Source: Acidimicrobiia bacterium (GTDB lineage: Bacteria > Actinomycetota > Acidimicrobiia > IMCC26256 > JACDBD01). Taken from it: a stretch of 63,590 nt of DNA. The notes under the pieces were generated by a model. The model had not been told where the DNA came from. It ran no database searches and was given only the letters and a program-made list of their open reading frames with translations. The translations under genes and the position numbers were made by a program. The stretch is from NCBI GenBank assembly GCA_035938395.1, contig DASZGY010000137.1, forward strand, positions 1-63,590, written 5' to 3'. This document shows positions 17,263 through 50,469 of the stretch, piece after piece (positions within the stretch are counted from its first letter, which is position 1; every line of letters begins with the position of its first letter).

Positions 17263-18122
17263 GCCGCACTCGCATCCGCCGAGTGCAGCGCGTCCAGCAG
17301 CCGAACGACGCGAACGGCCGCGAGCACGTCGTGCACGCGCACGATCGACGCGCCGCGCTCGACCGCCCAGACGACGGTCGCGAGCGTCCCCTCCTCGCGC
17401 TGGTCGACGGGAAGGTCACCCGAGGCAGCGCCTGCGCGCGCCAGCACCTTCCCGACGAAGGTCTTGCGCGACGTGCCGACCAGCACCGGCACCCCGACCC
17501 GCTCGGCGAGCGCCGGGAGGCCGGCGAGCAGACGGAGATTGTGCTCCACCGTCTTGCCGAACCCGATGCCAGGGTCGGCGGCCAGCGCGCCCTCGGCGAC
17601 GCCCGCCGCTCGTGCGACCTCGATCCGGTCGGCGAGGAAGTCGCCGACCTGGGCGACGACGTCGTCGTAGCGCGGGTCGGCCTGCATCGTGCGCGGCTCG
17701 CCCTGCATGTGCATGGCGACGTAGCCGGCACCGGCTGCCGCCGTGACGCCGAGGATCTCGGGGTCGCTGCGGCCCGCGGAAACGTCGTTGACGACGGTGG
17801 CGCCGGCGTCGAGCGCGGCCCGGGCGACCGCCGCCTTCGTGGTGTCGACGCTCAGCGGAACGGTCGTGGCCGCCGCGAGATGCTCGACGACGGGGACGAC
17901 CCGGCGGAGCTCCTCGTCGGCCGGCACGGGCTCGGCGCCGGGGCGGGTCGACTCGCCGCCCACGTCGAGGACGTCGGCTCCGTGTTCGGCGAGCTCCATC
18001 CCGTGCGCGACGGCGGCGTCGGGATCGAGGAACCGGCCGCCGTCCGAGAACGAATCGGGTGTGACGTTGACGATCCCCATGACCGCAACCCGCGCGCCGC
18101 ACACTCGATCCCACTCGAACAT
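17259..18122 (-). CDS. folP: Dihydropteroate synthase
   Basis: MGIVNVTPDSFSDGG, DVGGESTRPG, DPGIGFGK, GTSRK, VRVHDV. Start at 18122 or 18080. Confidence 0.96.
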   Translation of the reverse strand: MFEWDRVCGARVAVMGIVNVTPDSFSDGGRFLDPDAAVAHGMELAEHGADVLDVGGESTRPGAEPVPADEELRRVVPVVEHLAAATTVPLSVDTTKAAVARAALDAGATVVNDVSAGRSDPEILGVTAAAGAGYVAMHMQGEPRTMQADPRYDDVVAQVGDFLADRIEVARAAGVAEGALAADPGIGFGKTVEHNLRLLAGLPALAERVGVPVLVGTSRKTFVGKVLARAGAASGDLPVDQREEGTLATVVWAVERGASIVRVHDVLAAVRVVRLLDALHSADASAA

Positions 18123-31315: not shown

Positions 31316-34156
31316 CTACGCCCGTTCGGGTGCGACGGGCGCGTCCTTGCGGCCGTTTCCGTCGTCGGGCGCGACGGCGGGGGCCTCCATGGAGGCCACG
31401 ACCTCGGCCGCGGTGGCGGGCGGCTTCTTGGCCCGCTTCCCGTCGCGGCCGGCGCGCTTGCGCCCGCCCGCCACCTTCTTCTTGGTGCCGGTGGTCTTCT
31501 TCTTGGTCCCGGTCGACTTCTTCTTCGTCGTCTTCCGGGCGCGCTTGGCGGGCCCGCGGGACTCCCGCTCGCGCAGCAGCTCGACGGCCTCTTCGAGGTT
31601 CACGGACTTCGGGTCGGTGCCGCGCGGGATCGTGGCGTTCAACGACCCGTCCGTCACGTAGGGCCCGTAACGGCCGTCGAGCACGCGCACGGGAGCGCCG
31701 GTGTCGGGATGCTCGCCCAGCTCGGCGATGGGGGGCTTGGTCCGCCGGCGGTGCTGTTTGGGCTGGGCGAACAGGGCCTCGGCCCGCTCGACCGTCACCG
31801 TGAAGATCTCGTCCTCGGTCTCGAGGCTGCGGCTCTCCTTGCCCTTCTTCAGGTAGGGGCCGTAGCGACCGTTGTGGGCGGTGATCTCGTGGCCCTCGGC
31901 GTCGGCGCCCACCTCTCGGGGCAGGCGCAGCAGCTTGAGCGCGTCCTCGAACGTGATCGTGTCGAGGCTCATGGACGAGAGCAGCGACGCGGTCTTCGGC
32001 TTCTCCTCGCCGTCGACGAGCTCGCCCAGCTGCACGTACGGCCCGTAGCGACCGTCGCGGGCGATCACCTCGAGCCCCGTCTCCGGGTCCTTGCCGAGCA
32101 CCTGCGGGCCCTCGGCGGCGCGGGCGAGCAGCTCGACGGCGAGGTCGACGGTGAGCTCGTCCGGCGGGATGTCGTCGGCGAGCGACGCGCGCTCGTCGTC
32201 GCGTTCGAGGTACGGGCCGAACTTGCCGACCCGCACGTTGATCGTGCGGCCCTCATCGTCCTTCCCGATCTCGACCGTGTTGACCTCGCGCGGGTCGATC
32301 TCGGCGAGATGCTCCTCGCCGACGAGCTCTTTGAGCCCGCGCTGGCCGTTCCCGAAGTAGAAGTCGTTGAGCCAGTTCTCGGAGTCGCCTTCGCCGTTGG
32401 CGATGAGGTCGAGCGCCTCTTCCATCGTGGCGGTGAAGTCGTAGTCGACGAGGTGCGGAAAGTACCGCTCCATGAGCTGGAGCTTGGCGAACGCCGTCCA
32501 CGACGGCACCAACGCGCTGCCCTTCTTCCACACGTAACCGCGTTCGTGTGTGATCGTCTGGATGACCGACGCGTACGTGGATGGACGGCCGATGCCGCGT
32601 TCCTCCAGCTCCTTCACGAGGCTCGCCTCCGTGTAGCGAGCCGGAGGCTGGGTGCTGTGCCCGGCGGCGGCGAGCGTCTCGCAACTGACGGCGTCACCTT
32701 CGGCGAGGGGCGGCATCGGCGACTCCGCGTCCTCACGCTCGGCCGCGGGATCGTCCGCGCCCTCGACGTACGCGCGCCGGAACCCTAGGAACTCGTACGT
32801 CTTGCCCGATGCGGCGAACACCGCGGTCTCGCCCGCGGTCGACGTCGCCGACAACCGGATCGACACGCGCCGGGCACGCGCGTCCGTCATCTGGGACGCC
32901 AGCGTGCGCATCCACACCAGTTGATAGAGACGACGTTCGTCCGCGCCGAGCTCGCCACGCACCTCGTCGGGACTCCGCATGTGCTCGCCGGCGGGGCGGA
33001 TCGCCTCGTGCGCCTCCTGCGCGTTCTTCACCTTGCCCTGGTACGTGCGCGGGGCGTCGGGCAGGTACGCATCGCCGTACAGGTTGCGGATCTGCTCGCG
33101 CGCGCCGTTGATCGCCTGGTCGGACAGGTTCGTCGAGTCGGTGCGTACGTACGTGACGTATCCGCGCTCGTACAGGCCCTGGGCCACGCGCATGGTGCGC
33201 CCGGCCGAAAAGCGCAGCTTCCGGCCCGCTTCTTGCTGGAGTGTCGAAGTCGTGAACGGCGCCTTCGGTCGCTCGGTGAACGCCTTCGATTCGACGGAAG
33301 CCACCCGGTACTGGACGTCGCGCAGTCGCTCGACCAGCGCCTCGGCCTCGCCCTGCTGCAGGTGGACGACGGGGTCGCCCCCGCGGGCGTCGGCGGCGAC
33401 CTGCCCGGTGGCGGCGTCGAAGTCTCGGCCGCTGGCCACCTTGCTCCCGTCGAGCTCGACGAGCGTGGCCGGGAAGCCGTCGGCGGAGCCGCGATCACCC
33501 TTGTCGGTTCCGCCGACAGCGGGTTGGAAGGTGCCCTCGAGGTCCCAGTACTCGGCGGCCCGAAAGGCCATGCGGGCGCGCTCGCGCTCGACGACGAGAC
33601 GCGTGGCGACGCTCTGGACCCGGCCGGCCGACAGCCGGGGCATCATCTTCTTCCAGAGGACGGGAGACATCTCGTAGCCGACGAGCCGATCGAGCACCCG
33701 GCGACCCTCCTGCGCCTCGACCAGCTTCATGTCGAGCTCGCGCCAGTTCTGGATCGCTTCCTGGATGGCCGTGCGCGTGATCTCGTGGAAGACCATCCGC
33801 CGCACCGGCACGTCAGGTCCGAGGACCTCGAGGACATGCCACGAGATCGCCTCGCCCTCGCGGTCCTCGTCGGTGGCGAGATAGAGCTCGCTCGCACCCT
33901 TGAGCGCGTCCTTCAGCTCCTTGACGACGTCCTTCTTCTTCTTGGGGATGACGTAGATCGGTTGGAAGTGGTTCTCGACGTCGATCCCCAGGCGGCCGGC
34001 GTCCGTGCCCTTCCACTTCTTGGGGACTTCACTCGCGTTGCTGGGCAGATCACGAATGTGCCCGACGCTCGACTCCACCACGTAGTCCGCGCCGAGGTAG
34101 CCCGCGATGGTGCGGGCCTTCGCCGGAGACTCGACGATCACGAGTGGCTTGGGCAC
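31316..34156 (-). CDS. topA: DNA topoisomerase I
   Basis: LVIVESPAKA, ATDEDREGE, SAGRVQS, YVTYVRTD; actinobacterial C-terminal repeats (GRYGPY) and Lys-rich tail. Confidence 0.98.
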   Translation of the reverse strand: MPKPLVIVESPAKARTIAGYLGADYVVESSVGHIRDLPSNASEVPKKWKGTDAGRLGIDVENHFQPIYVIPKKKKDVVKELKDALKGASELYLATDEDREGEAISWHVLEVLGPDVPVRRMVFHEITRTAIQEAIQNWRELDMKLVEAQEGRRVLDRLVGYEMSPVLWKKMMPRLSAGRVQSVATRLVVERERARMAFRAAEYWDLEGTFQPAVGGTDKGDRGSADGFPATLVELDGSKVASGRDFDAATGQVAADARGGDPVVHLQQGEAEALVERLRDVQYRVASVESKAFTERPKAPFTTSTLQQEAGRKLRFSAGRTMRVAQGLYERGYVTYVRTDSTNLSDQAINGAREQIRNLYGDAYLPDAPRTYQGKVKNAQEAHEAIRPAGEHMRSPDEVRGELGADERRLYQLVWMRTLASQMTDARARRVSIRLSATSTAGETAVFAASGKTYEFLGFRRAYVEGADDPAAEREDAESPMPPLAEGDAVSCETLAAAGHSTQPPARYTEASLVKELEERGIGRPSTYASVIQTITHERGYVWKKGSALVPSWTAFAKLQLMERYFPHLVDYDFTATMEEALDLIANGEGDSENWLNDFYFGNGQRGLKELVGEEHLAEIDPREVNTVEIGKDDEGRTINVRVGKFGPYLERDDERASLADDIPPDELTVDLAVELLARAAEGPQVLGKDPETGLEVIARDGRYGPYVQLGELVDGEEKPKTASLLSSMSLDTITFEDALKLLRLPREVGADAEGHEITAHNGRYGPYLKKGKESRSLETEDEIFTVTVERAEALFAQPKQHRRRTKPPIAELGEHPDTGAPVRVLDGRYGPYVTDGSLNATIPRGTDPKSVNLEEAVELLRERESRGPAKRARKTTKKKSTGTKKKTTGTKKKVAGGRKRAGRDGKRAKKPPATAAEVVASMEAPAVAPDDGNGRKDAPVAPERA

Positions 34157-34309
34157 GTGCGGAATCCTCGTGTGAATGGGTAGGAGCGGGCCAACCGGGG
34201 GAAGTCGGCGTCACCGTGGTGCCACGAACCGGGTGCCCGTGTCAAACATTCCCTGCGGTGAACGCCCTGCATCCCTGCTCCCGGTGGGTCTTGTCTATCG
34301 TGTCAACCC

Positions 34310-35005
34310 ATGCACTTGGCGGCACTGAGCCTGAACCCCAGAGACATCCTGGATTCGTTCGGCCCGTGGGCGACGGTCGGGCTCATTCTCATCATCTTTG
34401 CCGAGACCGGGTTGCTCATCGGGTTCTTCCTCCCCGGTGACTCGCTGCTGTTCACCGGCGGCATCCTGGCGTCACAGGGCAACCTCAACATCGCGGTGAT
34501 CGCGATCGGCTGCTTCTTCGCCGCGGTCATCGGTGACCAGGTCGGGTACACGATCGGTCACCGCGCGGGACCGCCGCTCTTCCGTCGTCCCGACTCGCGG
34601 ATCTTCAAGCAGAGGTACGTCGATCGCACCAAGGAGTTCTTCGACAAGCACGGGCCGAAGACCATTCTTCTCGCACGGTTCGTGCCGGTCGTGCGCACGT
34701 TCGCGCCAGTGCTCGCGGGCGTGGGCAAGATGAACCGCCGCACGTTCACGACCTACAACGTCATCGGCGGATTCGTCTGGGCAGTCGGCGTGACGGTGGC
34801 GGGGTACATCCTCGGTTCTGCCATCGGCAGCGACATCGACAAGTACCTCCTGCCGATCATCGCCGTCATCGTCGTGCTCTCGATCCTTCCTCCCCTGATC
34901 GAAATGCGGCGGGAGCGCCGCCGCACCCGCGCGGCTGCGGCGGTGTCCGCCGCCGACGCCGAATCCCAGGCCGCCGACCTGCGCGAGGCCGTCACCGAGG
35001 ACTAG
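34310..35005 (+). CDS. DedA/VTT-family membrane protein
   Basis: FAETGLLIGFFLPGDSLLF, GDQVGY, ARFVPVVRTF. Confidence 0.93.
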   Translation: MHLAALSLNPRDILDSFGPWATVGLILIIFAETGLLIGFFLPGDSLLFTGGILASQGNLNIAVIAIGCFFAAVIGDQVGYTIGHRAGPPLFRRPDSRIFKQRYVDRTKEFFDKHGPKTILLARFVPVVRTFAPVLAGVGKMNRRTFTTYNVIGGFVWAVGVTVAGYILGSAIGSDIDKYLLPIIAVIVVLSILPPLIEMRRERRRTRAAAAVSAADAESQAADLREAVTED

Positions 35006-35027
35006 CTCCCGGGCCTCGGCGCCGTCC

Positions 35028-35110
35028 CGTCAAGCAGGCGTCAGGGTCGAGAAGGGCGAGGTTAGGAAGGCGTCAGGCCGTTTGCCGGGTGGGCCGCGCG
35101 GGCGTATCAC
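35028..35110 (+). promoter_or_regulatory. Four-repeat array A (putative KdpE boxes) plus -10-like element
   Basis: CGTCAAG 35028, CGTCAGG 35039, GGTTAGG 35060, CGTCAGG 35071; TATCAC at 35105. Confidence 0.65.
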
Positions 35111-35116
35111 AGGGGT

Positions 35117-35920
35117 ATGCGAAGGGATCGACTCCCCGAGGGACCCGACGACCGACTGGTCGTCGCCGGTCTGGGCCTTGCGGCGCTCGGTCCTCTCGTC
35201 GTAGCGAGCCTGCTCGTCACGGTGCGCGACCACATGGCGAGGTCCAACGCCGCCCTCGTGTTCGTCATCGTGGTGGTGCTCGCCGCCGCGCTCGGCGGAC
35301 GATGGGCCGGCTTCACGGCCGCCGTCATCTCGGCCATGTCGTACGACTTCTTCCTCACCCGGCCGTACGGATCTCTGAAGATCGACGAAGTCGAGGACAT
35401 CGTCGCCACCGTGCTGCTCCTCGCAGTCGGGCTGATCGTCGGCGAGGTCGTCGTGTGGGCACATCGCGGCCACCGGCAGAAGAAGCGCGGGCAGGACGAG
35501 ATCACCCGCTTGCACCGTGTCGCGGAACAGGTCGCGGCGGGCGCCTCTGCGCAAGACGTGTTGGAGTCCGTGCGCGCCGAGCTGACCGACCTCCTGTCAC
35601 TCCGCGCGTGCACGTTCGAGCAGCCGCCGTTCGGCACGCCGCTGCCGCGGCTCGGGCGCAACGGGTCCATCGACATCCCGCGCCGGCGGATCGTTCGCGG
35701 CGAGTTCACGCTCCCGGCCGAGGGTGTCGAGATCCCGGTTCTCGGCCGCGGCCGGCAGGTGGGACGCCTCGTGCTCGAGCCGGAGCCCGACGTCGGAGTG
35801 TCGCTCGAGGAACGCATCGTCGCCATCGCGATCTCGGACCAGCTCGGCGCGGCGGTGGCGGCCGAGTTGGACGCGCCCAAGACGAACGGCGATCGCGAGA
35901 ACGACCCGTTCCTGAGCTGA
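35117..35920 (+). CDS. DUF4118 (KdpD transmembrane-like) protein with a GAF-like tail and no kinase domain
   Basis: Four TMs with YDFFLTRPYGSL resembling the KdpD sensor loop; no H-box or HATPase. Confidence 0.75.
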   Translation: MRRDRLPEGPDDRLVVAGLGLAALGPLVVASLLVTVRDHMARSNAALVFVIVVVLAAALGGRWAGFTAAVISAMSYDFFLTRPYGSLKIDEVEDIVATVLLLAVGLIVGEVVVWAHRGHRQKKRGQDEITRLHRVAEQVAAGASAQDVLESVRAELTDLLSLRACTFEQPPFGTPLPRLGRNGSIDIPRRRIVRGEFTLPAEGVEIPVLGRGRQVGRLVLEPEPDVGVSLEERIVAIAISDQLGAAVAAELDAPKTNGDRENDPFLS

Positions 35921-35943
35921 CCCGGCCCTGCTGGGAGACTCGC

Positions 35944-38298
35944 CTACGCGCTGATCTCGTATACGGGGTTCATGATCGCGAGGCGGCCGTGATGGTCCAC
36001 GACCATGCCTTCGACCGTCAGTCGTGTCCCGATCTGGATGCCGGCGATGGTCCGCCGCCCGAGGAACAGCACTGAGATGCCACCCGTGTCGTCGACGAGC
36101 GTGCACTCGAGGGCGCACGTTCCCGACATCGACTGAACGCGTAGCGCGCTGACCGTGCCCGTCACGCGGACACGCTGACGCCACTCCACGTCGGCGATGA
36201 CGACGCTCGCCGTCCCCAGCTTCGCGGCGACAGCGCTCCGACCGCCGTTCCCGGCGGCGCGCGGTGCAGGTGACTTCGGCTTGCGAACCCCAGCTTCGCT
36301 GCGTCCATCCGGAGCGTGAAACTCGTTGAGCGTCGGGCCGACGCCACCCTCGTCCTCGCCGAGATTGAAGGGCACCGTCGTCACGGTCACGTGCTGCATC
36401 CTCGAGATATCGCGCGCCAGCGTCTCGGCGGTCTGGTCGTGGAGGATGCGGCGCCAGAACCCGCCGTACCGGCGGTCCGGTAGGACGACGCACACCTCGG
36501 TTTGGCCGTCGGCCAGGGCATGCGCGACGGTCGTCATCGCGCTTCGGCTCAGGCGACGATCAGGACTGTCCACCAGCTCGAGCGCGATGCTCGCGAGCCC
36601 GTGCTCGCGCCACGACTCGGCCAGCTCGTCGCCGCGCTGTTGATCGACGACGAAGTGCACGGCTCGCAGGTCGTCCGGGTGCAGCGACCGCCCGAACTGG
36701 AGGGCTCGAGCGGCCGCCAGGTCGAGGCGGTCGATGAACACGAGAACGGCGAGCCGCCGCATGATCGGGGCCCGCACCGCGGCCGGGACGTTGACGTCCA
36801 ATTTGCTTCCCTCCCGTTCGTACTGGCGAGCAAGGCGTACGAGGAACACCACCATCACCGGGACGAGCACCACGACGAGCCATGCGCCGTGGGCGAACTT
36901 CGTGACGGCGATGACCGCGTCGACGATCAGCGACATCACCGCACCGGTGCCGTTCACGAAGAGCCCGAACCGCCAGCCCGGCTCCTTCTGGGTGATGTGA
37001 TGCTTGGCCATGCCGGCCTGGGACAGCGTGAACGACGTGAACACGCCGATCGCATAGAGCGGGATCAGGCGATCGACCTTGGCCCCGGTGAGCAGGAGCA
37101 AGACGATCGACGCCACGGTCAAGAAGATGATCCCGTTCGAGAACACGAGGCGGTGTCCCCGCTTCGTGAGCTGCCGGGGCATGAAGTTGTCGCCGGCGTG
37201 GAACGACGCCAGACGGGGAAAGTCGGCGAAGCTCGTGTTGGCGGCGAGGACGAGGATCAGCATCGTGCCCGCCTGCAGAGCGAAGTACAGCAGCCGGCCC
37301 AACGGGCTGCCGCCGTACACGAGGTCTCCGATTTGCGAGATCACGGTCGGAGTGCCCTGAGCGTACGGCGCGACGTGCATGTGCGAGGCGAGCACCGACA
37401 GCCCGAGGAACATCGCGCCGAGGAGCGTGCCCATGATGACGAGCGTTGTGCGGGCGTTCTTCCACGCCGGCTTCTTGAAGGCGGGGACGCCGTTCGAGAT
37501 CGCCTCGACCCCGGTGACTGCGGCACCCCCGGACGCGAAGGCGTGGAGCACCACGAACAGTGTCGCCCCGAGCAGGATGCCGTTGCCCTGCTGGCCGAAG
37601 TGAACCACGCCCGCGGCGTTGTGGGACGCCTCGGGAAGCCCTCCGTTCATGAGCTGGTACAGGCCCCAGCCCAGAAGCACGAGCATGTTGACGATGAAGA
37701 AGTACGTCGGAACGGCGAAGACGCGCCCGGACTCGCGGACGCCCCGGAGGTTGCCGAACGCGATGAGGATGACGAAAGAGATCGAGATCGGCACGGCGAA
37801 AGGCGTCAGCATCGGGAACGCCGACGCCACGGCCGCCGTGCCGGCCGCGACCGATACCGACACCGTGAGCACATAGTCGGTGAGGAGCGCGACCCCCGCG
37901 ACCTGCGCGGGCAACAACCCGAAGTTGTCTCTCGTCACCATGTAGGCGCCGCCGGCCGTCGGATACGCCTTGATCGTCTGTCGGTACGAGAGGATCAGGA
38001 AGCCGAGCACCACCAACATCGCGACTGTGATCGGGACGACGAGCGCGAAGGCGGCGATCCCAACGGCGGGAACGAGGACGCGGAGGATCTCCTCGGTCGC
38101 ATACGCCGACGAAGACAAGTTGTCCGACGCGAAGACAGCGAGGGCGGTCGGCTTTCCGAGCCGCTCGTGATCGAGCTGCTCGGTGTGCAGAGGTGGGCCG
38201 AGGAGCTTCCGCTTGACGCGGTAGCCGACGCTGTCGCGAGGGAGCTCGGTCGACGGCTGGAGCGGCAGCGGTCGCGGCTCGGCCTTGTCGGTCAACAC
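35944..38298 (-). CDS. KimA/YdaO-like APC permease fused to a C-terminal OB-fold
   Basis: SDNLSSSAYATEE, TDYVLTVSVS, TGVEAISNG, NTSFADFPRL; cytoplasmic domain (LHDQTA); last ~85 aa OB-like (FLGRR.I.G...NPVY). Confidence 0.88.
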   Translation of the reverse strand: MLTDKAEPRPLPLQPSTELPRDSVGYRVKRKLLGPPLHTEQLDHERLGKPTALAVFASDNLSSSAYATEEILRVLVPAVGIAAFALVVPITVAMLVVLGFLILSYRQTIKAYPTAGGAYMVTRDNFGLLPAQVAGVALLTDYVLTVSVSVAAGTAAVASAFPMLTPFAVPISISFVILIAFGNLRGVRESGRVFAVPTYFFIVNMLVLLGWGLYQLMNGGLPEASHNAAGVVHFGQQGNGILLGATLFVVLHAFASGGAAVTGVEAISNGVPAFKKPAWKNARTTLVIMGTLLGAMFLGLSVLASHMHVAPYAQGTPTVISQIGDLVYGGSPLGRLLYFALQAGTMLILVLAANTSFADFPRLASFHAGDNFMPRQLTKRGHRLVFSNGIIFLTVASIVLLLLTGAKVDRLIPLYAIGVFTSFTLSQAGMAKHHITQKEPGWRFGLFVNGTGAVMSLIVDAVIAVTKFAHGAWLVVVLVPVMVVFLVRLARQYEREGSKLDVNVPAAVRAPIMRRLAVLVFIDRLDLAAARALQFGRSLHPDDLRAVHFVVDQQRGDELAESWREHGLASIALELVDSPDRRLSRSAMTTVAHALADGQTEVCVVLPDRRYGGFWRRILHDQTAETLARDISRMQHVTVTTVPFNLGEDEGGVGPTLNEFHAPDGRSEAGVRKPKSPAPRAAGNGGRSAVAAKLGTASVVIADVEWRQRVRVTGTVSALRVQSMSGTCALECTLVDDTGGISVLFLGRRTIAGIQIGTRLTVEGMVVDHHGRLAIMNPVYEISA

Positions 38299-38379
38299 GC
38301 CAGTGGCCTCCCGGTCACGGGCCCGCTGTCGGAAGCGGCGCGGGCGTCACCATGGTCACGTAGCGAACCCTCGAAAACG

Positions 38380-38429
38380 CGTTAAGGACGCGTCAAGACC
38401 GCCGAGCCGGGCGTCAGGATCCCGCTAGA
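38380..38429 (+). promoter_or_regulatory. Four-repeat array B (putative KdpE boxes), inverted relative to the adjacent APC gene
   Basis: CGTTAAG 38380, CGTCAAG 38391, CGTCAGG 38412, degenerate CGCTAGA 38423. Confidence 0.55.
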
Positions 38430-38445
38430 TTCCGCTGTTCCACCC

Positions 38446-39120
38446 TCAGGGTTCGAAGCGGTCCCCCATGCCGGGCTCGGTGATGAAGTAACGCGGGTGG
38501 GCGGGCTCGGGCTCCAGCTTGCGGCGGACCTGGGCCATGAACACCCGCAGATAGTTGGTCTCGTCGTGGTACTGGGGTCCCCAGACCTCTTGCAGCAGCT
38601 GCGTCTGCGCGACGAGGCGGCCGCGGTTGCGGACGAGGACCTCCACGAGGTGCCACTCGGTAGGGGTGAGCCGCACCTCTTCGCCGTTGCGCTGGACCTT
38701 CTTGGCGGCGAGATCGATCGTGAAGTCGGCGGTATCGATTACCGCGTCCTCTTCTGCCGGCGCCGTACGACGCAACGCAGCGCGCAAGCGGGCGAGGAGC
38801 TCGTCCATTCCGAACGGCTTCGTGACAAAGTCGTCGGCGCCGGCGTCGAGCGCGGCGACCTTGTCGTCCTCGGCGTCGCGCACGGACAGGACGACGATCG
38901 GAACCTGCGTCCAGCCCCGTAGTCCTCGAATGACGTCCACGCCGTCGATCCCCGGCAAGCCGAGGTCGAGGACGACGACGTCGGGGTGCTTGCGCGCCGC
39001 AAGCTCGAGGGCCCGCTCGCCGTCTTGCGCGACCTCGACGTCGTACCCGCGGGCGCGCAAGTTGATCGAGAGTGCTCGCCGGATCTGCGGCTCGTCGTCG
39101 ACGACGAGCACCCGGCTCAT
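38446..39120 (-). CDS. kdpE: Response regulator KdpE
   Basis: VDDEPQIRRAL, LDLGLP, TKPFGMDELLAR, NYLRVFMAQVRRKLE; ATGA overlap with kdpD. Confidence 0.9.
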   Translation of the reverse strand: MSRVLVVDDEPQIRRALSINLRARGYDVEVAQDGERALELAARKHPDVVVLDLGLPGIDGVDVIRGLRGWTQVPIVVLSVRDAEDDKVAALDAGADDFVTKPFGMDELLARLRAALRRTAPAEEDAVIDTADFTIDLAAKKVQRNGEEVRLTPTEWHLVEVLVRNRGRLVAQTQLLQEVWGPQYHDETNYLRVFMAQVRRKLEPEPAHPRYFITEPGMGDRFEP

Positions 39121-41612
39121 GCCGAGGCTTCGAGACTGACGACAACGGTGAGGCCGCCGCCCGGCGTGTCCTCGACGGTGATCTCACCGCCCATAGCGTC
39201 GACGAAGCCGCGCGCGACCGCCAGGCCGAGACCGGTGCCACCGTCGTTCGACTGATCGCCGAGCCGTTGAAATGGCTGGAACATGCGGTCGCGTTGATCG
39301 GGAGGAATGCCCGGGCCGCGGTCGACGACGCGAAGGTCGACCCGGTCGCCGACGGCGCACGCATCGACCCGGACGGGGTGGTCGGGCGGAGACCACGAGA
39401 GCGCGTTGCCGACGATGTTGGCGACGGCTCGCTCGAGGAGGGCGGCGTCGGCGTGAACGCGCGGCATCGTCTCCTCGACGCTCACTTCAACCGTCTGCGC
39501 CCGTTCGCCGAGCCCTTTGATCGCCGCCGGTACGACCTCCTCGAGGCCGACGTCCCGCATGACCAGTTGGAGAGCGCCGCTCTGGAGTCGGCTCATGTCG
39601 AGCAGGTTGCCGACGAGCGTGTTCAGCCGATCGGACTCCTCGTCGATCGTGGCGAGCAGCTCGTGCGTCGCCTGGGGCGTCCAGTCGACGTCCTGCTGGA
39701 GCAGGCTGGTCGCCGCGGCCTTGATCGACGAGAGCGGTGTGCGCAGATCGTGGGACACCGCGGCAAGGAGGGCGGCCCGCAGGTCGTTGGCTTCCGCCAG
39801 TCCCGCGGCCACCGCCGCCTCGGCCCGCAGCTGCCGGCGCTCGAGCGCGAGCGCGAGCTGGCCGGTGAACGCCTGGAGGAGCGCGAGGTCCTCGGCCGCG
39901 AGCCCCGGCCCGACCACGACCAGCTCCATCTCTGCGTCGATGGGGATGCTGAGGTCGCCCTCTTCCGGGCTCTGCGGAACCGGTGCCCCGGTCGACGTCT
40001 CGACAACCCAGCCGTCTCCGCTGCGTTGCAAGACGGCGATCCCTCCGAGGCCGAAGGCGGTGCGCAGCGTGCTGATGAGCAGCGGCAGCGGATCCTCTTC
40101 GACCATGAGCTGGCCGCCGAGCCGCGCGAGGGTCTCGGCTTCGGCACGCGCCCGAGACGCTTCGGCCGAACGCCGCGCCGCGAAGTGCACGAATCCGCTC
40201 ACGACCCCTGCCACCAGCAGGAACACGACGAGCGCGATGACATCCTTCCCCGCGTGGATCGCAAACTCGTGGAGGGGCGCAATGAAGTAGAAGTTCGCGA
40301 GAAGGAACGCGGCCACACTCGCTCCGAGCGCGGGCCATACCCCACCGACGGCGGCGATCGTGACGACGGCGAGGAGGTAGAGAAGCAACGTGGCGGGCAG
40401 ATCGAGGCCGTCCCGCATGGTGGCCATGACGAGGGTGAGCAACGGGAGGAGGACCACGCCCAGCAGCGCCCCGGCCACCTGACGGCGCACCGGGAGTGTT
40501 CGCCGTCCGCGAGGCCGGCGAAACGGGGCTTCTGGCGCGGGCTCCTCACTCGAGATCACGTGGACGTCGATGGAGCCGGACGCGCGGATCACACGGTTGA
40601 TCACGGAGCCGCGGGTGAGCTCGACCCAGCGCGACCGGCGGCTGGCACCGAGGACGAGCTGCGTGGCGTTCTCGGCGCGCGCGAACTCGATCAAAGCCTT
40701 GCCGACATCGTCACCGACGATCTCGTGGTACGTGCCTCCGAGCTCAGTCAGCAGTGCTCGATGCTCGTCGAGCAGCTGCTTCGGAGGGCCCGTGAGCCCG
40801 TCGTTCGAGCGCACGTGCACGCCGAACAGCTCGGCGTGAGCGCGCATCGCCATCCGTGCCGCACGCCGGATGAGCGCTTCCCCGCCCGGTGCTCCGGTGA
40901 TCGCCACGACCGTGCGCTCGCGCGTCTCCCATGGCCCCCGGATCCCGTGGTCGTCCATGTAGTCCTGTAATGACTCGTCGACCTTGTCGGCCACCCAGAG
41001 CAGGGCGAGCTCCCGGAGCGCGGCGAGGTTGCCGGGTCGGAAGTAGTTGGCGAGCGACGCGTCGATCCGCTCCGGCGGGTAGATGTTGCCGTGCGCCATG
41101 CGACGGCGGAGCGCCTCCGGGGTCATGTCGACGAGCTCGACCTGCTCGGCGGCCCGGACGATCGCGTCCGGAATGGTCTCGTGCTGCTTGACTCCCGTGA
41201 TCCGCTCGACGACGTCGTTGACCGACTCGAGGTGCTGCATGTTCAGCGTCGTCACGACGTCGATCCCCGCGTCGAGCAGCTCGTTGACGTCCTGCCACCG
41301 CTTCTCGTTCCGCGAGCCCGGGACATTCGTGTGGGCGATCTCGTCCACCAGAACGGCCTGCGGCTTCCGGGCGAGGACGGCATCGACGTCCATCTCCTCG
41401 AACTGCTTCCCGCGGTACTCGATCTTCTTCCGGGGCACGACCTCGAGATCCCGAATCTGCGCCTCTGTGTTGGCGCGACCGTGGGTTTCGACGTAGCCGA
41501 CGACGATGTCCTTGCCGCGGTGCCTCCCGCGCCAGCCTTCGTTGAGCATGGCGAAGGTCTTGCCGACGCCGGGCGCAGCGCCCAGATACACACGCAGCCT
41601 TCCACGAGCCAT
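39117..41612 (-). CDS. kdpD: Sensor histidine kinase KdpD
   Basis: GAAPGVGKT N-domain, DEIAHTN, Usp domain, four TMs, GAF, SHDLRTPL H-box, GTGLGL G-box. Confidence 0.96.
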   Translation of the reverse strand: MARGRLRVYLGAAPGVGKTFAMLNEGWRGRHRGKDIVVGYVETHGRANTEAQIRDLEVVPRKKIEYRGKQFEEMDVDAVLARKPQAVLVDEIAHTNVPGSRNEKRWQDVNELLDAGIDVVTTLNMQHLESVNDVVERITGVKQHETIPDAIVRAAEQVELVDMTPEALRRRMAHGNIYPPERIDASLANYFRPGNLAALRELALLWVADKVDESLQDYMDDHGIRGPWETRERTVVAITGAPGGEALIRRAARMAMRAHAELFGVHVRSNDGLTGPPKQLLDEHRALLTELGGTYHEIVGDDVGKALIEFARAENATQLVLGASRRSRWVELTRGSVINRVIRASGSIDVHVISSEEPAPEAPFRRPRGRRTLPVRRQVAGALLGVVLLPLLTLVMATMRDGLDLPATLLLYLLAVVTIAAVGGVWPALGASVAAFLLANFYFIAPLHEFAIHAGKDVIALVVFLLVAGVVSGFVHFAARRSAEASRARAEAETLARLGGQLMVEEDPLPLLISTLRTAFGLGGIAVLQRSGDGWVVETSTGAPVPQSPEEGDLSIPIDAEMELVVVGPGLAAEDLALLQAFTGQLALALERRQLRAEAAVAAGLAEANDLRAALLAAVSHDLRTPLSSIKAAATSLLQQDVDWTPQATHELLATIDEESDRLNTLVGNLLDMSRLQSGALQLVMRDVGLEEVVPAAIKGLGERAQTVEVSVEETMPRVHADAALLERAVANIVGNALSWSPPDHPVRVDACAVGDRVDLRVVDRGPGIPPDQRDRMFQPFQRLGDQSNDGGTGLGLAVARGFVDAMGGEITVEDTPGGGLTVVVSLEASA

Positions 41613-41633
41613 GGTGAAAGCCTACGACGCCCG

Positions 41634-42317
41634 TTACTCGGCAGCGTCGAAGCGATAGCCGAGACCGGCCTCGGTCGTGAAGTATCGAGGCCGGGACTGT
41701 TCCGGCTCGAGCTTCCGTCGGAGCCGGGCGATGTACTCGCGCAGGTTTCCCGTTTCGTCTTGGTACTCGGGACCCCAGACCTCCTGGAGGAGTTGGTGCT
41801 GGGGAACGAGCTTGCCGCGGTTGCGCACCAAGACCTCGACGAGTTGCCATTCCGTCGGGGTCAACCGCACCTCCTCGCCGTTGCGGGTGACGCGCTTGGC
41901 GGCGAGGTCGATCGTGAAGTCACCGGTTTCGATCGCCGCCTCGTCGGCGACGGGGATCACTCGCCGGAGCGCGGCCCGGAGCCTCGCCAAGAGCTCGTCC
42001 ATCCCGAACGGCTTGGTGACGTAGTCGTCGGCGCCGGCGTCGAGGGCGGCGACCTTGTCGGCCTCTGTGTCACGGACGGACAGGACGATGATCGGGACCC
42101 GGCTCCAGCCTCGGATGCCTTCGATGACCTCGACGCCTCCGATGCCGGGGAGGCCGAGATCGACGACGACGACATCGGGACGGTGGCGGACCGCCAGGTC
42201 GAGGGCTTCTTCGCCCGTCTCGGCGAGGTCGACGTCGAACCCGCGAGCCCGGAGGTTGATCCCGACTGTGCGCCGGATCTGAGTCTCGTCGTCGACGACG
42301 AGGACCCGGCTGGTCAT
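41634..42317 (-). CDS. Second KdpE-like response regulator
   Basis: Close paralogue of 38446-39120 (shared KVAALDAGADD.VTKPFGMDELLARLRAALRR). Confidence 0.88.
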   Translation of the reverse strand: MTSRVLVVDDETQIRRTVGINLRARGFDVDLAETGEEALDLAVRHRPDVVVVDLGLPGIGGVEVIEGIRGWSRVPIIVLSVRDTEADKVAALDAGADDYVTKPFGMDELLARLRAALRRVIPVADEAAIETGDFTIDLAAKRVTRNGEEVRLTPTEWQLVEVLVRNRGKLVPQHQLLQEVWGPEYQDETGNLREYIARLRRKLEPEQSRPRYFTTEAGLGYRFDAAE

Positions 42318-42353
42318 GATGCCTGACCACGCGCCATAGCGCTTCCTAGGTGC

Positions 42354-43151
42354 TCACGATTTCTGCTGGTCCAGGGCGAGATTGAGGTCCAGGACGTTGA
42401 CGGTCTTCTCGCCGAGGATCCCGAGATCCCGTCCCGAGGTGTGGTCGTCGATCAACGCGCGCACGCGCGCCACCGGAAGGCCGCGCTCGGTCGCGACGCG
42501 CTTCGCCTGGAGCCGTGCGTTGGCCACCGAGATGTCCGGGTCGAGGCCGGACGCCGACGCGGTCACGGCGTCGACGGGGACCTTCGTGGCGCGCCCGAGG
42601 CCGTTCAGCTCCCGGTACGCCAGCGTGCGCTGCGGCACCGTGTTCGTGTCGCAAACGTACGACCCGTCGTCGTTCTTCTTGTACTTGGTGTCGGCGGTCG
42701 GGCTCACGACCACCTTGCCGTCCTTGTCGTCCGGAACGCAGTACGGATCGTCAGGGCTCGCGAACGGGTTGGTCTTGGACGAGTTCCCGTTGAGATCGAC
42801 CGTGTTGAAGCCCGGGATGAAGCCGACGAGGGCAGGATTGGAGGGCCCGAGGTTCGAGCCCACGCTGAGGGTCGGGTCGTACCCGGCGGATGTCTTCCCG
42901 TCCACGCCGGACGCAGCAGAAGGCCGTGACTGGAAGTACTTCTTGATCGCGTTGCCGTCCTTGTCGACGAACGCCTGCCCGATCAGGCTCGAGCCGACAT
43001 CCTTCCCCTTGCGCTGCACGAAGGAGCCGTTGGCCTTGTCCTGCAAGCCCGGGATCTGGGCAACGCCCGTCACGAGGAGCCCGTAGCCGATGCCGAGCAC
43101 CAGCGTGAAGACGATCATCGACAGGACGGCGGGGATGAATTGGCGTCGCAT
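42354..43151 (-). CDS. kdpC: K+-transporting ATPase subunit C
   Basis: KANGS, GSSLIGQ, FQSRPS, VTASASGLDPDIS, VNVLDLNLALD; ~60-aa internal insertion. Confidence 0.95.
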   Translation of the reverse strand: MRRQFIPAVLSMIVFTLVLGIGYGLLVTGVAQIPGLQDKANGSFVQRKGKDVGSSLIGQAFVDKDGNAIKKYFQSRPSAASGVDGKTSAGYDPTLSVGSNLGPSNPALVGFIPGFNTVDLNGNSSKTNPFASPDDPYCVPDDKDGKVVVSPTADTKYKKNDDGSYVCDTNTVPQRTLAYRELNGLGRATKVPVDAVTASASGLDPDISVANARLQAKRVATERGLPVARVRALIDDHTSGRDLGILGEKTVNVLDLNLALDQQKS

Positions 43152-45215
43152 CTACGAGACTCCCAATGCCGAGATGACGATGTCGATGAGCTTGATGCCG
43201 ATGAAGGGCGCGATCACGCCGCCGGCGCCGTAGATCAGCAGGTTGCGCCGCAAGAGATGAGAAGCAGACGTCGGAATGAACTTCACACCCCGCAACGCCA
43301 GGGGGATCAGCATCACGATGATGATGGCGTTGAAGATGACTGCGGACAGGATGGCGGAACGCGGTGTCTGGAGCTGCATGACGTTCAGACGATCGAGAAC
43401 GCTCAGACTGGCGAAGCCGGCGAACATCGCCGGGATGATGGCGAAGTACTTGGCGACGTCGTTGGCGATCGAGAACGTGGTCAATGATCCGCGCGTGATC
43501 AGCAGCTGCTTGCCGATCTCCACGATGTCGATGAGCTTCGTCGGGTCCGACTCCAGGTCGACCATGTTCCCGGCTTCCTTGGCCGCCTGAGTACCGGTGT
43601 TCATTGCCACGGCGACGTCGGCCTGCGCGAGCGCAGGGGCGTCGTTGGTGCCGTCACCCGTCATTGCAACGAGTCTCCCGCCCCGTTGCTCGCTCTTGAT
43701 CAGCTCCATCTTGTCTTCGGGCGTCGCTTCGGCGAGATAGTCGTCGACACCCGCTTCCTTGGCGATGAAGGCTGCAGTGCGGGGGTTGTCGCCGGTGATC
43801 ATGACCGTGCGGATGCCCATGCGCCGCAGGTCGGCGAAACGATCGGCGATGCCGGGCTTGACGATGTCCTTGAGGTAGACGACACCCAACGCGCGCGGAG
43901 GGTGGGGGGAACCCTCCGCCGCGCCGGCCTCGGCGACCACGAGCGGCGTTCCGCCCTGCGCCGCAATCGAGTCGACCGTGTCGCCGAGTTCTGGGGGGAC
44001 GACGCCGCCCTGTTCCTCCACCCAGCGGCGAACCGCGTCGGCCGCGCCCTTGCGGACCGATCGTCCGTCCATATCCACACCGCTCATGCGCGTCTGCGCC
44101 GTGAAGGGAACGAGATCGGCGCCGATGAGCTCGCGCTCGCGCAGTCCGTAGCGCTCTTTCGCGAACACGACGATCGACCGTCCTTCGGGCGTCTCGTCCG
44201 CGAGGCTCGAGAGCTGCGCCGCGTCGGCGAACTCCTGCTCGGTCACGCCGTTGGCGGGGATGAACGCGTCAGCCTCGCGGTTCCCGAACGTGATCGTGCC
44301 CGTCTTGTCGAGCAGGAGAGTGGCGCAGTCCCCCGCTGCTTCGACGGCGCGACCACTCATGGCGAGCACGTTGCGGCGCACGAGCCGGTCCATCCCGGCA
44401 ATGCCGATGGCCGAGAGCAACGCGCCGATCGTCGTGGGAATGAGACAGACCAGCAGCGCAACGAGGATGACGACGGTCTGCTCGGCGTTGGCGAACATCG
44501 CGAACGGCTGGAGCGTCACAGTCGCGAGAAGGAAGATGATGGTGAGTCCCGCGAGGAGGATGTTGAGCGCGATCTCGTTCGGGGTCTTCTTGCGCTCGGA
44601 CCCCTCGACGAGAGCGATCATCCGATCCAGGAAGGTCTCCCCCGCGCGAGCCGTGATTCGCACCACGATCTCGTCGGACAGGACCCGAGTGCCCCCGGTG
44701 ACGGCCGAGCGGTCACCACCTGATTCGCGGATGACCGGCGCAGACTCACCGGTGATGGCGGACTCGTCGACGCTCGCGATGCCCTCGATCACCTCGCCGT
44801 CGGACGGGATGATCTCCCCCGCGCTCACGACGCACTCGTCGCCGACGTCGAGCGCGGTGCTCGGGACCTCGTCGATCGTGCCGTCCGGGTGGCGTCGACG
44901 AGCGAGTGTCTCTGAGCGCGTCTTCCGCAGCGTGTCGGCCTGCGCCTTTCCTCGGCCTTCGGCGACGGCCTCGGCGAAGTTCGCGAACAGCACCGTGAAC
45001 CACAGGAACAAGGCGACCAGGCCCACAAAGACGTTCTCGTTCGTCGAAGACGAGCCGAAGTCCTTGAAGAACAGGATCGTCGTCAGCACGGAGCCCACTC
45101 CGACGACGAACATCACCGGGTTGCGCATCAGCGTCCGCGGATTGAGCTTGATGAAGCTGTCGACGATTGCTCGCCGAAGCATCTTCGGCTCCACGAAGTT
45201 GGAGTCACGCGCCAT
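43152..45215 (-). CDS. kdpB: K+-transporting ATPase subunit B
   Basis: TGES, DKTGT phosphorylation motif, [22 protein letters not shown]. Confidence 0.98.
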
Positions 45216-45232
45216 GTGCCGATGCTCCTCGA

Positions 45233-46951
45233 TCAGATCCCGAGCTGCTCGACGATGGGGCCGAGCGCGAGGACGGGTAGGAAGGTCAGGGCGGCGACGA
45301 TCAGCACGACGCCGATGACGAGCACGACGAAGAGCGGTGTGTGTGTCGGGAACGTGCCTGCCGATGGCGGGACCCGGCGCTTGCGCACGAGCACGCCCGC
45401 GAGCGCAAGGGTCGGGATGATGAGGAAGAACCGGCCTACCAGCATGGTCACGGCCAGCGCTGTGTTCATCCAGGCCGTGTTCGCAGTGATGCCCGCGAAC
45501 GCCGAGCCGTTGTTGTTCCCTGCCGATGTGAACGCGTAGATGAGCTCCGTGAACCCGTGCGATCCCGGATTCAGGAGCGACACGTCACTCACGGATCTCA
45601 CGAACGTCGAGATGGCGATGAAGATCAGCACGACCGCGGGCATCACGAGGATGTAGATCGCGACGAGCTTCACCTCGGCGGCCTGGATCTTCTTGCCCAA
45701 GTACTCGGGAGTGCGCCCGACCATGAGACCGGCGATGAAGACAGAGAGGATGGCGAGTATCAGCAGCCCGTTCAGACCGACGCCGACGCCGCCCGGGCTG
45801 ACCTCCCCGAGCTTCATGTGCACGAGCGGGATCATGCCGCCGGCGGGCGTGAAGCTGTCGTGCATCGCGTTGACCGAACCGTTGGAGGTGCCGGTCGTAG
45901 ACGCGGCCCACAATCCGGACGCGCTCGGGCCGTACCGGACCTCCTTCCCTTCGGCGTTGCCGCCCGGTGAGCTCGCACTGACCGTCTGCGTGACGCCCAC
46001 ACCACGTGCGTCGAGCTTCGGGTTGCCGCCGACCTCGAGAAAGATCGTGAGGAGGCTGGCAGTAAGCCAGATCACGAACATGATCGAGAACACGGCGTAG
46101 CCCTGCCGCTTGTCCTTGACCATCCGTCCGAACGTGAAGGCCAGCGCGAACGGGATGATGAGGATGGAGTAGATCTCGAGGAAGTCGCTGAACTTGGTCG
46201 GGTTCGAGAACGGGTGCGCCGAGTTCACGTTGAAGAAGTCGCCGCCGTTGGTGCCGATCATCTTGATCGATTCCATGCTGGCGTTGGGGCCCCCCGGGAC
46301 CTTCTGGGTGGCGCCGGCGACGGTGTGCACCTGGGTGAAGCCATGGGTGTTCTGGATCACGCCGGTCGCCACGAGCACGATCGCGAACACGAACGCGATC
46401 GGAACCAGGATGCGGATCGTCGTACGCACGAGATCGACCCAGAAGTTGCCGATCGTGCGCTGACCGGCGCGCGACAGGCCCCGGATCAGCGCCGCCATCA
46501 CCGCCATGCCCGCTGCCGCAGACACGAACTGCTGGACGGTGAGACCCGTCATCTGGGTGAGATGGCTCAGAGTGCTCTCACCGGCGTAGCTCTGCCAGTT
46601 CGTGTTGGTCACGAAGCTGACCGCCGTGTTCAACGACAGCGCCGGCGCGACGTTGGCCATGTCGGTCGGGTTGAACGGCAGGCCGCTCTGGATGCGCTGG
46701 ATCAGGTACAGCAGCACGATGCCGACGACGCTGAACGCGAGCACTGACAGCGCGTAGACGTTCCACCGCTGCTCGCGTTCCGGATCGATCCGGCAGGCGC
46801 GGTAGATGAGCCGCTCGACCGGCCCGAAGACGCGGTCGAGGCGCGAAGGCCCGCCCTCGTACACGTTGGCCATGTACCGCCCGAGCAGCGGCGCGGTCGC
46901 GCCGATAAGGACGATGAGGGCAATCAGTTGCGCCCAGCCGGCAGCCGTCAT
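45233..46951 (-). CDS. kdpA: K+-transporting ATPase subunit A
   Basis: [42 protein letters not shown]. Confidence 0.98.
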
Positions 46952-47040
46952 CAGAACCGTTCCGGGAACAGCAGGGCTGCCACCAGGTACAGGCCGAGCA
47001 GGATCGCCAGGACGAGGCCGGCGATGTTCTCGCCCCTCAC
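46951..47040 (-). CDS. kdpF: K+-transporting ATPase subunit F (29 aa)
   Basis: [29 protein letters not shown]; TGATG overlap with kdpA; not in the ORF track. Confidence 0.92.
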
Positions 47041-47201
47041 CGCGCTACCCCGACCGGCTCACGTTCCGTGTCGCCCTCGGGCGGGGGCGGAGCGAGCTCG
47101 TCGGCGTCGTCAGGTCCGATGATCCTCGCGCAGCCGCGCACGAACGCCACGCACAGCGCGAAGAACGCGACGATCAGGAGCAGTACCCACACATCAGCCA
47201 T
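47037..47201 (-). CDS. Small membrane peptide upstream of kdpF (54 aa)
   Basis: [27 protein letters not shown]...; GAGGAG RBS; GTGA overlap with kdpF. Confidence 0.75.
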
Positions 47202-47232
47202 GACTCTCCTCGGGTTCGCTCGTGCAGCCTCG

Positions 47233-47317
47233 ATGTATACGCGGCGATCGCCGCCGTGAGAAGGGGGCCTGATGCCTTGTTGACGCCCGGCCCGGCAGCC
47301 TTGACGGACCACAAACG
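47233..47317 (-). promoter_or_regulatory. Four-repeat array C (putative KdpE boxes) plus -10-like element for the kdp operon
   Basis: Minus strand: CGTTTGT 47317, CGTCAAG 47306, CGTCAAC 47285, CATCAGG 47274; TATACAT from 47239. Confidence 0.7.
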
Positions 47318-47338
47318 ACGCCCGCCCGAGGGAGCCCG

Positions 47339-47422
47339 TCTCAACAGGGCGTCAAGATCTGCGAACGACCTGTTAACGGGTTGTCAACTGCGCTTCCGTA
47401 CGGGACAACGCGCGCTACTGAT
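47339..47422 (+). promoter_or_regulatory. Four-repeat array D (putative KdpE boxes) plus -10-like element for the divergent small ORFs
   Basis: TCTCAAC 47339, CGTCAAG 47350, TGTTAAC 47371, TGTCAAC 47382; TACTGAT at 47416. Confidence 0.65.
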
Positions 47423-47474
47423 GTAGGGACCTACTACGTCGACGCTCGAGGAGGGCGACACGAGGAGCGCGGAA

Positions 47475-47711
47475 ATGAAGAAGTCGAAGACCGTGCAAGT
47501 CCGTTGGGGGCTGCTCCGCCCTGGGGCGACCGTCATCGGCGAAAACGGAAACGACCAGGAGCACAAGGTAGTGACCGTCGAGCACCGGGGGTCGACGGTG
47601 AGCGTGCTGTTCTGGGACGGAAGCCGCGAGCACCACAGCGAAGACGACTACGCCCGGGTGCGTCTGTCCGAATCCACACGACAGCGGGAACGCGAGCGTC
47701 ATGCAAGCTGA
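47475..47711 (+). CDS. Hypothetical protein (78 aa, beta-rich)
   Basis: GAGGAG RBS, protein-like composition, overlaps the next ORF by 11 nt. Confidence 0.6.
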   Translation: MKKSKTVQVRWGLLRPGATVIGENGNDQEHKVVTVEHRGSTVSVLFWDGSREHHSEDDYARVRLSESTRQRERERHAS

Positions 47712-48033
47712 CGACTCGGTCGAGCGCGCCATCGTGCAACTGCTCCTGACCAAGAACCCCGACGAGATCGAGACGCTGGCAGATGACCTCGGCGCGATGG
47801 GTGACCGCCGGGCGGTCGGTCCGCTTGCCTCCCGACTCGCCGACAGTCGAGTCCACGATGATCCCGATCTCGAGGAGGCCGTCTGTTCGTCGCTTGTCCG
47901 CCTGGGTGCGATGGATCGGCGCGGCAACCTCAACTACGCGTTCGTGGATCCGTCGAGACTCGACCCTCGGAGCAGCGATGCAGTTCGCCGGCTGAGCTCG
48001 GCCATTCCGAGACGGTTCTTTCCCGCGAGCTAA
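47701..48033 (+). CDS. Small HEAT/PBS-repeat-like protein (110 aa)
   Basis: LADDLGAMGDRRAVGPLASRL...VCSSLVRLG resembles a HEAT-repeat pattern. Confidence 0.7.
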   Translation: MQADDSVERAIVQLLLTKNPDEIETLADDLGAMGDRRAVGPLASRLADSRVHDDPDLEEAVCSSLVRLGAMDRRGNLNYAFVDPSRLDPRSSDAVRRLSSAIPRRFFPAS

Positions 48034-48037
48034 GCGC

Positions 48038-50395
<2,358 letters not shown>

Positions 50396-50469
50396 CTGGT
50401 GTACGGGCTCCTTCCCCCCGGGCCCCTCTGGGGCCGCTGCCGTCCGGCCGGCGCTCGCCGGCGGGCAGA

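Follow-up and report, generated by a model that had tools for sequence, protein, structure and literature searches.

The 63,590-nucleotide (nt) contig DASZGY010000137.1 of assembly GCA_035938395.1, referred to below as the window (contig C137), comes from an Acidimicrobiia bacterium whose genome amounts to 3.03 Mb in 157 contigs with about 70% G+C, and whose nearest KdpA and KimA relatives are metagenome-assembled genomes of Acidimicrobiia. It carries a kdp operon for K+ uptake, including the sensor kinase gene kdpD and the regulator gene kdpE, together with a gene for a KimA-type K+ importer (kimA), a gene whose only Pfam domain is DUF4118 (the DUF4118-only gene) and the pair orf78-orf110, and four intergenic regions of this neighbourhood contain an array of four heptamers (arrays A to D, Table 1). 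A preliminary description of this DNA had placed four 7-mers in each region, starting at offsets 0, 11, 32 and 43, and all 16 heptamers were found there, the pairs at 0/11 and at 32/43 being present in 4 of 4 arrays. The consensus given at that time, YGTYARS, holds exactly for 11 of the 16, the remaining five having one or two mismatches, and the heptamers are better written as CGTcAAG(A); the weakest are the first ones of arrays C and D. These two arrays lie back to back with a gap of 21 nt between them, and array B sits between the stop codon of kdpE (38446-38448) and the start of kimA (38298), inverted relative to kimA. The evidence set out below makes it very likely that each array is an operator for phosphorylated KdpE, composed of two tandem dimer sites.

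Since the earlier consensus had been drawn from these very sites, an independent position weight matrix for the heptamer was built from kdp promoters taken from six further genomes, whose KdpA is 56-77% identical, and the footprinted KdpE site of Mycobacterium smegmatis, and its scores were summed at 0/11/32/43 on both strands of the entire genome. In this spaced scan, a check that the preliminary description had proposed, the motif stands far above background and the four arrays rank first, third, fourth and fifth: array B leads with 32.2 bits, a site on another contig (C59:18003, minus strand) follows with 28.6 bits, and D, A and C come next, the best independent match after these five arrays reaching 19.9 bits. 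The second-ranked site proved to lie in the promoter of another kdp operon, which validates the matrix. Six matches above 23 bits occur at 0/11/32/43, as against none or one at each of 27 alternative spacings, and the signal is lost when the period is changed to 9, 10, 12 or 13 bp. A refined matrix of 64 columns, derived from 51 non-redundant arrays of relatives (consensus CGTcAAggccgCGTcAAGA-N13-CGTcAAGAAngCGTnAAGA), finds these five promoters only, at 20-43 bits, with array B at the top, A in second and D in third place, and the next match at 14 bits. The exact pair YGTYARS-N4-YGTYARS has four copies in the genome (both strands), three of them in these intergenic regions; the fourth (C20:4058) falls within a long, probably coding open reading frame (ORF) and was taken as chance. 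Two further candidates were discarded, namely C2:14121+ (19.9 bits), which overlaps a start codon and is lost with the refined matrix, and 38348+, which corresponds to the strong first pair of array B in the 32/43 slots, combined with two weak heptamers.

These data leave hardly any credibility to the idea that the repeats are chance or compositional matches, or stacked -35-like TTGACG hexamers, without a dedicated regulator. CGTCAAG read backwards does hold TTGACG, the consensus first came from these same sites, and five heptamers are degenerate; nevertheless, the independent matrix and the spacing control rule chance out, the 0/11/32/43 register is kept over dozens of genomes while the spacers diverge, and the heptamers of arrays A, C and D face the wrong way for the -35 boxes of their genes. 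The arrays are confirmed as real and far above chance.

The nature of the regulator is suggested by the characterized KdpE sites. In M. smegmatis, the minimal site obtained from electrophoretic mobility shift assays and footprinting, CCGTAAAGAAACCATCAAGGCC, reads CGTAAAG-N4-CATCAAG, and an 18-bp probe with the first heptamer truncated remains unbound by KdpE (PMC5401905). In Escherichia coli, the KdpE half-sites TTTATA and TTTACA lie 11 bp apart in a footprint from -72 to -50, and residues R193, R200 and T215 of the protein touch DNA (PMC3264566); when reverse-complemented, these half-sites become TGTAAAA and TATAAAA and fit the consensus yGTnAAr, and the array pattern begins about 72 nt upstream of the inferred transcription start site, on the opposite strand, in agreement with the published footprint. 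The 0/11/32/43 array precedes kdp in about 25 loci, array C and C59:18003 standing likewise at kdp promoters, and '+' arrays were recorded at the kdp promoters of at least 17 actinobacterial loci. Array C is orthologous to the arrays at kdp in L001-L012, L023, L068 and L074 and to the KdpE site of M. smegmatis. Arrays directed at kdp occur in loci L001-L009, L011, L012 and L023, in Nocardia (L068) and in Actinomadura (L074), whereas those of Nitrospira, Planctomycetaceae, Gemmatimonadales, Burkholderiales and Thermomicrobiales are directed away from it. Both in these away-pointing kdp arrays and in E. coli, the distance from the promoter-proximal heptamer to the start of a -10-like hexamer is exactly 10 nt. 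At the level of sequence, the arrays qualify as KdpE operators in all respects considered, and the earlier proposal of paired KdpE dimer sites appears well supported by the match to footprinted sites, the kdp arrays in many Actinobacteria and in other phyla, and the matrix scan.

The comparison across phyla also yielded some additional observations on the operator itself. The whole kdp operator is flipped in the other phyla sampled (L026, L027, L033, L038, L055, L073 and L080, with the proximal pair over the -35 region) with respect to Actinobacteria. The kdpF-ybfA region of E. coli MG1655 (L161) contains, downstream of the classical site, a degenerate second pair, TTTTGCG / CTTTGCA, which keeps the 0/11/32/43 register and ends 10 nt before TACCCT; no mention of this second pair was found in the E. 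coli KdpE papers cited here, and what is known as the E. coli site would represent the distal half of a four-site array that has partly decayed. No simple co-variation was detected across loci between heptamer flavour (GTCAA, GCTAA or GTGAA) and the KdpE recognition helix. In Caulobacter, where KdpE ChIP-seq identified Pkdp as the main target, the reported motif TCGAMRACGCSMKC shows no clear relation to the heptamers and was not accepted as the same motif.

Regarding the protein that occupies the arrays, the window encodes two KdpE paralogues, KdpE1 and RR2, and contig C59 a third, KdpE3. KdpE1 is translationally coupled to kdpD and has a canonical recognition helix, NYLRVFMAQVRRKLE, which make it the likeliest partner of KdpD, and it is the likeliest candidate for binding the arrays. 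The helix of KdpE3 is canonical as in KdpE1, and that of RR2 has diverged (GNLREYIARLRRKLE). The RR2 helix reads GNLREYIARLRR versus NYLRVFMAQVRR in the KdpE of relatives, and all examined relatives read NY(L/V)RV... at this position. RR2 lies between kdpC and kdpD and is present also in the 96%-identical relative L081; the fetched kdp loci of relatives (L001, L003, L005, L006 and others) have a single KdpE-like gene. It is improbable, on balance, that a non-canonical regulator, either RR2 or another member of the OmpR family, binds the arrays partly or wholly, in which case the extra promoters would form a separate regulon with KdpE-like boxes. The RR2 recognition helix is indeed unlike that of KdpE in all relatives, at least five other regulators of the OmpR family are encoded in the genome, and the heptamers of array D read TGTyAAC versus CGTCArG in A and B. 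Nevertheless, a matrix derived from kdp promoters alone recovers all the arrays, relatives with just one KdpE-like gene in the fetched kdp locus have arrays at kimA and orf78 as well, KdpE1, RR2 and KdpE3 all retain residues equivalent to R193 and R200, and the heptamers match footprinted KdpE sites.

The second kdp cluster lies outside the window, at C59:8795-19842, with kdpA at 15872-17614 on the minus strand, the array at 18003 (minus strand) and a -10 element TACAAG. Genes for a KdpD and for the third KdpE, 66% identical to KdpE1, also belong to it, with a DUF4118-only homologue lying between the two. A divergent ORF of 620 amino acids (aa) matches KdpD residues 4-355 and 423-582, which span the N-terminal sensor portion up to and including the DUF4118 region, with no HisKA/HATPase match. 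This cluster may represent either a genuine paralogous operon or contamination introduced by binning.

Beyond the Kdp pump, KdpE probably controls a second K+ importer and three poorly known genes, since each member of the regulon that the preliminary description had proposed (kdpFABC, the DUF4118 gene, the KimA permease and the small ORFs) is backed by conservation. The importer is identified by its match to Bacillus subtilis KimA (PDB 6S3K, E 3.4e-125, residues 26-645 versus 3-604). Among 80 orthologues from Acidimicrobiia, arrays were recorded at about 50, essentially those with at least 57% identity; they stand 40-190 bp ahead of the match and, except in L121 and L156, are inverted relative to the gene. 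About 14 of the array-bearing kimA loci have no kdp gene within 4 kb, and none of these arrays was found at the kimA clade of about 51% identity that adjoins the H+-pyrophosphatase gene and topA. In L104, a single gene-directed array is followed by a DUF4118 gene and then by kimA. The importer has a C-terminal extension of about 140 aa (residues ~646-784) that is absent in B. subtilis KimA and that the preliminary description took to be OB-like. A second KimA-type permease (50407-52332, minus strand), 42% identical to the first, adjoins the H+-pyrophosphatase gene and is without a KdpE-type array; the order H+-pyrophosphatase, 109-aa ORF, AA_permease_2 recurs in relatives.

The DUF4118-only protein consists of a KdpD-type four-helix membrane module and a C-terminal segment; it matches the KdpD model at 397-542 only, and no HisKA or HATPase domain was found in it. 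Its homologues lie beside or inside kdp operons in L001, L003, L004, L006, L011, L162-L166 and contig C59; in L006, L011 and L162-L166 the gene is the first of the kdp operon, upstream of kdpF and behind the array, and in L001 and L003 it is divergent from kdp. Array A itself is kept at the orthologous gene in the four closest relatives (L081-L084). Concerning orf78, whose product has 78 aa, 65 homologue clusters with 59-86% identity were recovered, in addition to its own entry and one 46-aa fragment, and it thus represents a genuine, conserved family of small proteins; it has no Pfam match and is divergent from the kdp operon in every context recovered. L162 and L164 have back-to-back arrays serving kdp and orf78, and L167 has one ahead of orf78; array D is conserved in these three loci, including its odd first heptamer (yCTCAAC). 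Back-to-back arrays are found in Nocardia L068 too, and in L012 it is a homologue of orf110 that is divergent from kdp. The membrane ORF of 54-56 aa ahead of kdpF is conserved across actinobacterial kdp operons, this genome included; in M. smegmatis, the region matching it (MSMEG_5391) was taken by its authors as 5'-untranslated region.

The arrays directed at a gene share one layout, in which heptamer 4 is followed by 4-5 nt, a weak -35 (TTC or TTG), 16-17 nt and a hexamer starting with TA, and which is common to A, C, D, C59 and the actinobacterial kdp promoters. The TA-initiated -10-like element noticed earlier at three arrays starts 27 (A), 28 (C) and 27 (D) nt past the end of the last heptamer, the 28-29 nt first reported being the same distance counted slightly differently, and array B lacks such an element in its own reading direction, as had been implied. 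Among 13 non-redundant '+' arrays, at least 10 have the TA 27-29 nt past heptamer 4, with no other offset enriched, and TACTGG or TACTGA occupies the position of the putative orf78 promoter in L164, L166 and L167. At kimA, the putative -35 element TTAACG corresponds to heptamer 1 of array B read on the opposite strand, and TACGTG is conserved in L081-L084, with GACCAT, five nt further on, as an alternative -10. The ATG of the DUF4118-only gene (35117) comes 6 nt past the -10 element, and in L081-L083 5-6 nt likewise precede an ATG or GTG, so its mRNA is probably leaderless. No consensus sigma-70 promoter was found in these regions, as expected of activator-dependent promoters, nor was a terminator between kdpE and kimA, and a scan of 34000-48500 for riboswitches by Rfam E-value returned three chance-level matches only. 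With the SigF-type promoter that has been proposed for PkdpF of M. smegmatis, array A shows a loose fit (GTTT ... GGGCGTAT) and arrays C and D show none, and this assignment was not retained.

Table 1. Arrays, putative core promoters and genes in the window
Feature	Positions	Strand	Details
Array A	35028-35077	+	CGTCAAG 35028, CGTCAGG 35039, GGTTAGG 35060, CGTCAGG 35071; toward DUF4118-only gene
Array B	38380-38429	+	CGTTAAG 38380, CGTCAAG 38391, CGTCAGG 38412, CGCTAGA 38423
Array C	47268-47317	-	CGTTTGT 47317, CGTCAAG 47306, CGTCAAC 47285, CATCAGG 47274; toward kdp
Array D	47339-47388	+	TCTCAAC 47339, CGTCAAG 47350, TGTTAAC 47371, TGTCAAC 47382; toward orf78
Putative DUF4118-only core promoter	35082-35110	+	weak -35 TTGCCG 35082-35087, 17 nt, -10 TATCAC 35105-35110
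Putative kimA core promoter	38357-38386	-	TTAACG 38385-38380, 17 nt, TACGTG 38362-38357
Putative kdp core promoter	47234-47262	-	weak -35 TTCTCA 47262-47257, 17 nt, -10 TATACA 47239-47234
Putative orf78 core promoter	47394-47421	+	TTCCGT 47394-47399, 16 nt, TACTGA 47416-47421
topA	31316-34156	-	
DedA/VTT	34310-35005	+	
DUF4118-only gene	35117-35920	+	267 aa; Pfam DUF4118, E 1e-23
KimA-type K+ importer	35944-38298	-	784 aa; Pfam AA_permease_2; PDB 6S3K
KdpE1	38446-39120	-	224 aa; E 1.4e-68 to E. coli KdpE (4KNY)
KdpD sensor kinase	39117-41612	-	831 aa; Pfam KdpD, Usp, DUF4118, HisKA, HATPase_c
RR2, second KdpE paralogue	41634-42317	-	227 aa; 74% identity to KdpE1
kdpC	42354-43151	-	
kdpB	43152-45215	-	
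kdpA	45233-46951	-	
kdpF	46951-47040	-	
54-aa membrane ORF	47037-47201	-	first of kdp operon (42354-47201)
orf78	47475-47711	+	soluble; no known family
orf110	47701-48033	+	overlaps orf78; soluble; no known family
H+-pyrophosphatase	48038-50599	-	

Taken together, these elements outline a possible mechanism. A dimer site would consist of two CGTcAAG(A) heptamers repeated with a period of 11 bp, and the two dimer sites would start 32 bp apart; this period and this offset would put all four half-sites on the same face of the helix, and four KdpE protomers would fill each array. When K+ is scarce, KdpD would phosphorylate KdpE, most likely KdpE1, and the phosphorylated protein (KdpE~P) would switch on, from array C, the kdp operon (54-aa ORF, kdpFABC, RR2 and kdpDE), from array A, the DUF4118-only, KdpD-like membrane protein and, from array D, orf78-orf110. 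The layout of A, C and D is that of an activator-dependent promoter, and KdpE~P would accordingly act there as an activator. Array B would act on the KimA-type K+/H+ symporter from the opposite orientation, with its proximal heptamer over the -35 element.

Several observations weigh against this interpretation. The consensus is not fully matched by five of the 16 heptamers, the genome has three KdpE-like regulators and the helix of one of them, RR2, has diverged, and the -10 elements do not end in the usual T and are recognized by position only. At kimA, the best -10 candidate lies 10, 17 or 21 nt from the array depending on the clade, and this variation does not fit one fixed geometry of activation. 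Finally, in an assembly of 157 contigs additional array sites may be missing.

On the direction of control at array B the evidence is closely divided, activation of kimA being slightly favoured over repression. As a repressor site, array B would place KdpE~P on the -35 element of the kimA promoter, silencing the symporter during induction of Kdp and perhaps also stopping transcription that runs on from kdpE; this sub-hypothesis of the preferred explanation, whose probability is not to be added to those of the other alternatives, is a serious contender that falls somewhat short of an even chance. A near-consensus -35 element (TTAACG, 17 nt, TACGTG), conserved in L081-L084, falls on heptamer 1 of array B, and the variable distance between array and -10 would be tolerated by occlusion and usually not by activation. 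A precedent exists in B. subtilis, where tagAB and tagDEF are repressed by PhoP~P through boxes that lie on the other strand. Against repression, an array inverted in the same way is the activating form at kdp of E. coli and of other phyla, where the -10 follows the proximal heptamer at a distance of exactly 10 nt, and one kimA clade (the L085 group) has exactly this 10-nt geometry. In addition, kimA of L104 follows a DUF4118 gene behind a gene-directed array, and in the window kimA lies directly downstream of kdpE with no terminator, which suggests co-expression.

The arrangement may be compared with other members of the OmpR/PhoB family. PhoB pho boxes and actinobacterial PhoP units are tandem direct repeats with an 11-bp period that place two dimers at or over the -35 region, and the a1-b1-a2-b2 boxes of GlnR are likewise multi-protomer arrays of this family; promoters of the PhoB, PhoP and GlnR type have a poor -35 and depend on the activator, and their arrays are usually contiguous (0/11/22/33). 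The present arrays differ from these contiguous ones in the fixed 14-nt spacer between pairs, and their core is GTnAA instead of GTTCA (PhoP) or GTnAC/GAAAC (GlnR). Among KdpE sites, the M. smegmatis PkdpF box resembles array C in heptamer type (CGTAAAG-N4-CATCAAG versus CGTCAAC-N4-CATCAGG), 11-bp period, actinobacterial host and position upstream of kdpF, and in that species both heptamers are needed and control by K+ limitation operates via KdpDE (PMC5401905). As described, however, the M. smegmatis box is one 22-bp 'A-rich' site, not called a direct repeat, and kdpFABC is its sole named target, whereas two pairs, 32 bp apart, are present here and the operator recurs at three further promoters. 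The E. coli operator, to which KdpE binds as a head-to-tail dimer (PMC3264566; PDB 4KNY/4KFC), shares the half-site in reverse complement, the 11-bp period and the conserved R193 and R200, but the E. coli array is inverted relative to kdp and only its distal pair matches well. In addition, genomic SELEX (systematic evolution of ligands by exponential enrichment) defined E. coli KdpE as a single-target regulator of kdpFABC only (PMC5934670), unlike the present genome, where the operator occurs at at least five promoters. In Firmicutes, kimA and kdp are reported to be controlled by the cyclic di-AMP (ydaO/kimA) riboswitch (bioRxiv 10.1101/2023.07.05.547876; PMC6488665). The expression of a KimA-type and a Kdp importer would be tied to K+ status in both cases, but with no riboswitch detectable here, control appears to be transcriptional and to operate through a two-component operator.

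In summary, KdpE is the textbook example of a single-target regulator, and the descriptions for E. coli and M. smegmatis each include a single dimer site; with respect to the KdpE sites described so far, the candidate operators presented here are new in having four half-sites with a 14-nt spacer, in occurring at five promoters of one genome and in standing in both orientations. The ancestral KdpE operator would be a two-dimer array with a fixed register. A broader and clearly more doubtful proposal is that KdpE operators are generally 0/11/32/43 two-dimer arrays (in Actinobacteria, Nitrospirota, Planctomycetota, Gemmatimonadota and Proteobacteria), decayed in E. coli and flipped in Actinobacteria, and that in Acidimicrobiia a single KdpE reads both orientations within one cell, activating the Kdp pump, the kinase-less KdpD-like membrane protein and orf78 from gene-directed arrays and exerting the opposite control at the inverted kimA array over the -35 element. 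If this were true, array orientation would constitute a switch between ATP-driven and proton-coupled K+ uptake. Three uncharacterized genes gain a testable link to K+ starvation, and these arrays may offer a natural system for examining how the orientation of an operator sets the output of an OmpR/PhoB-family regulator.

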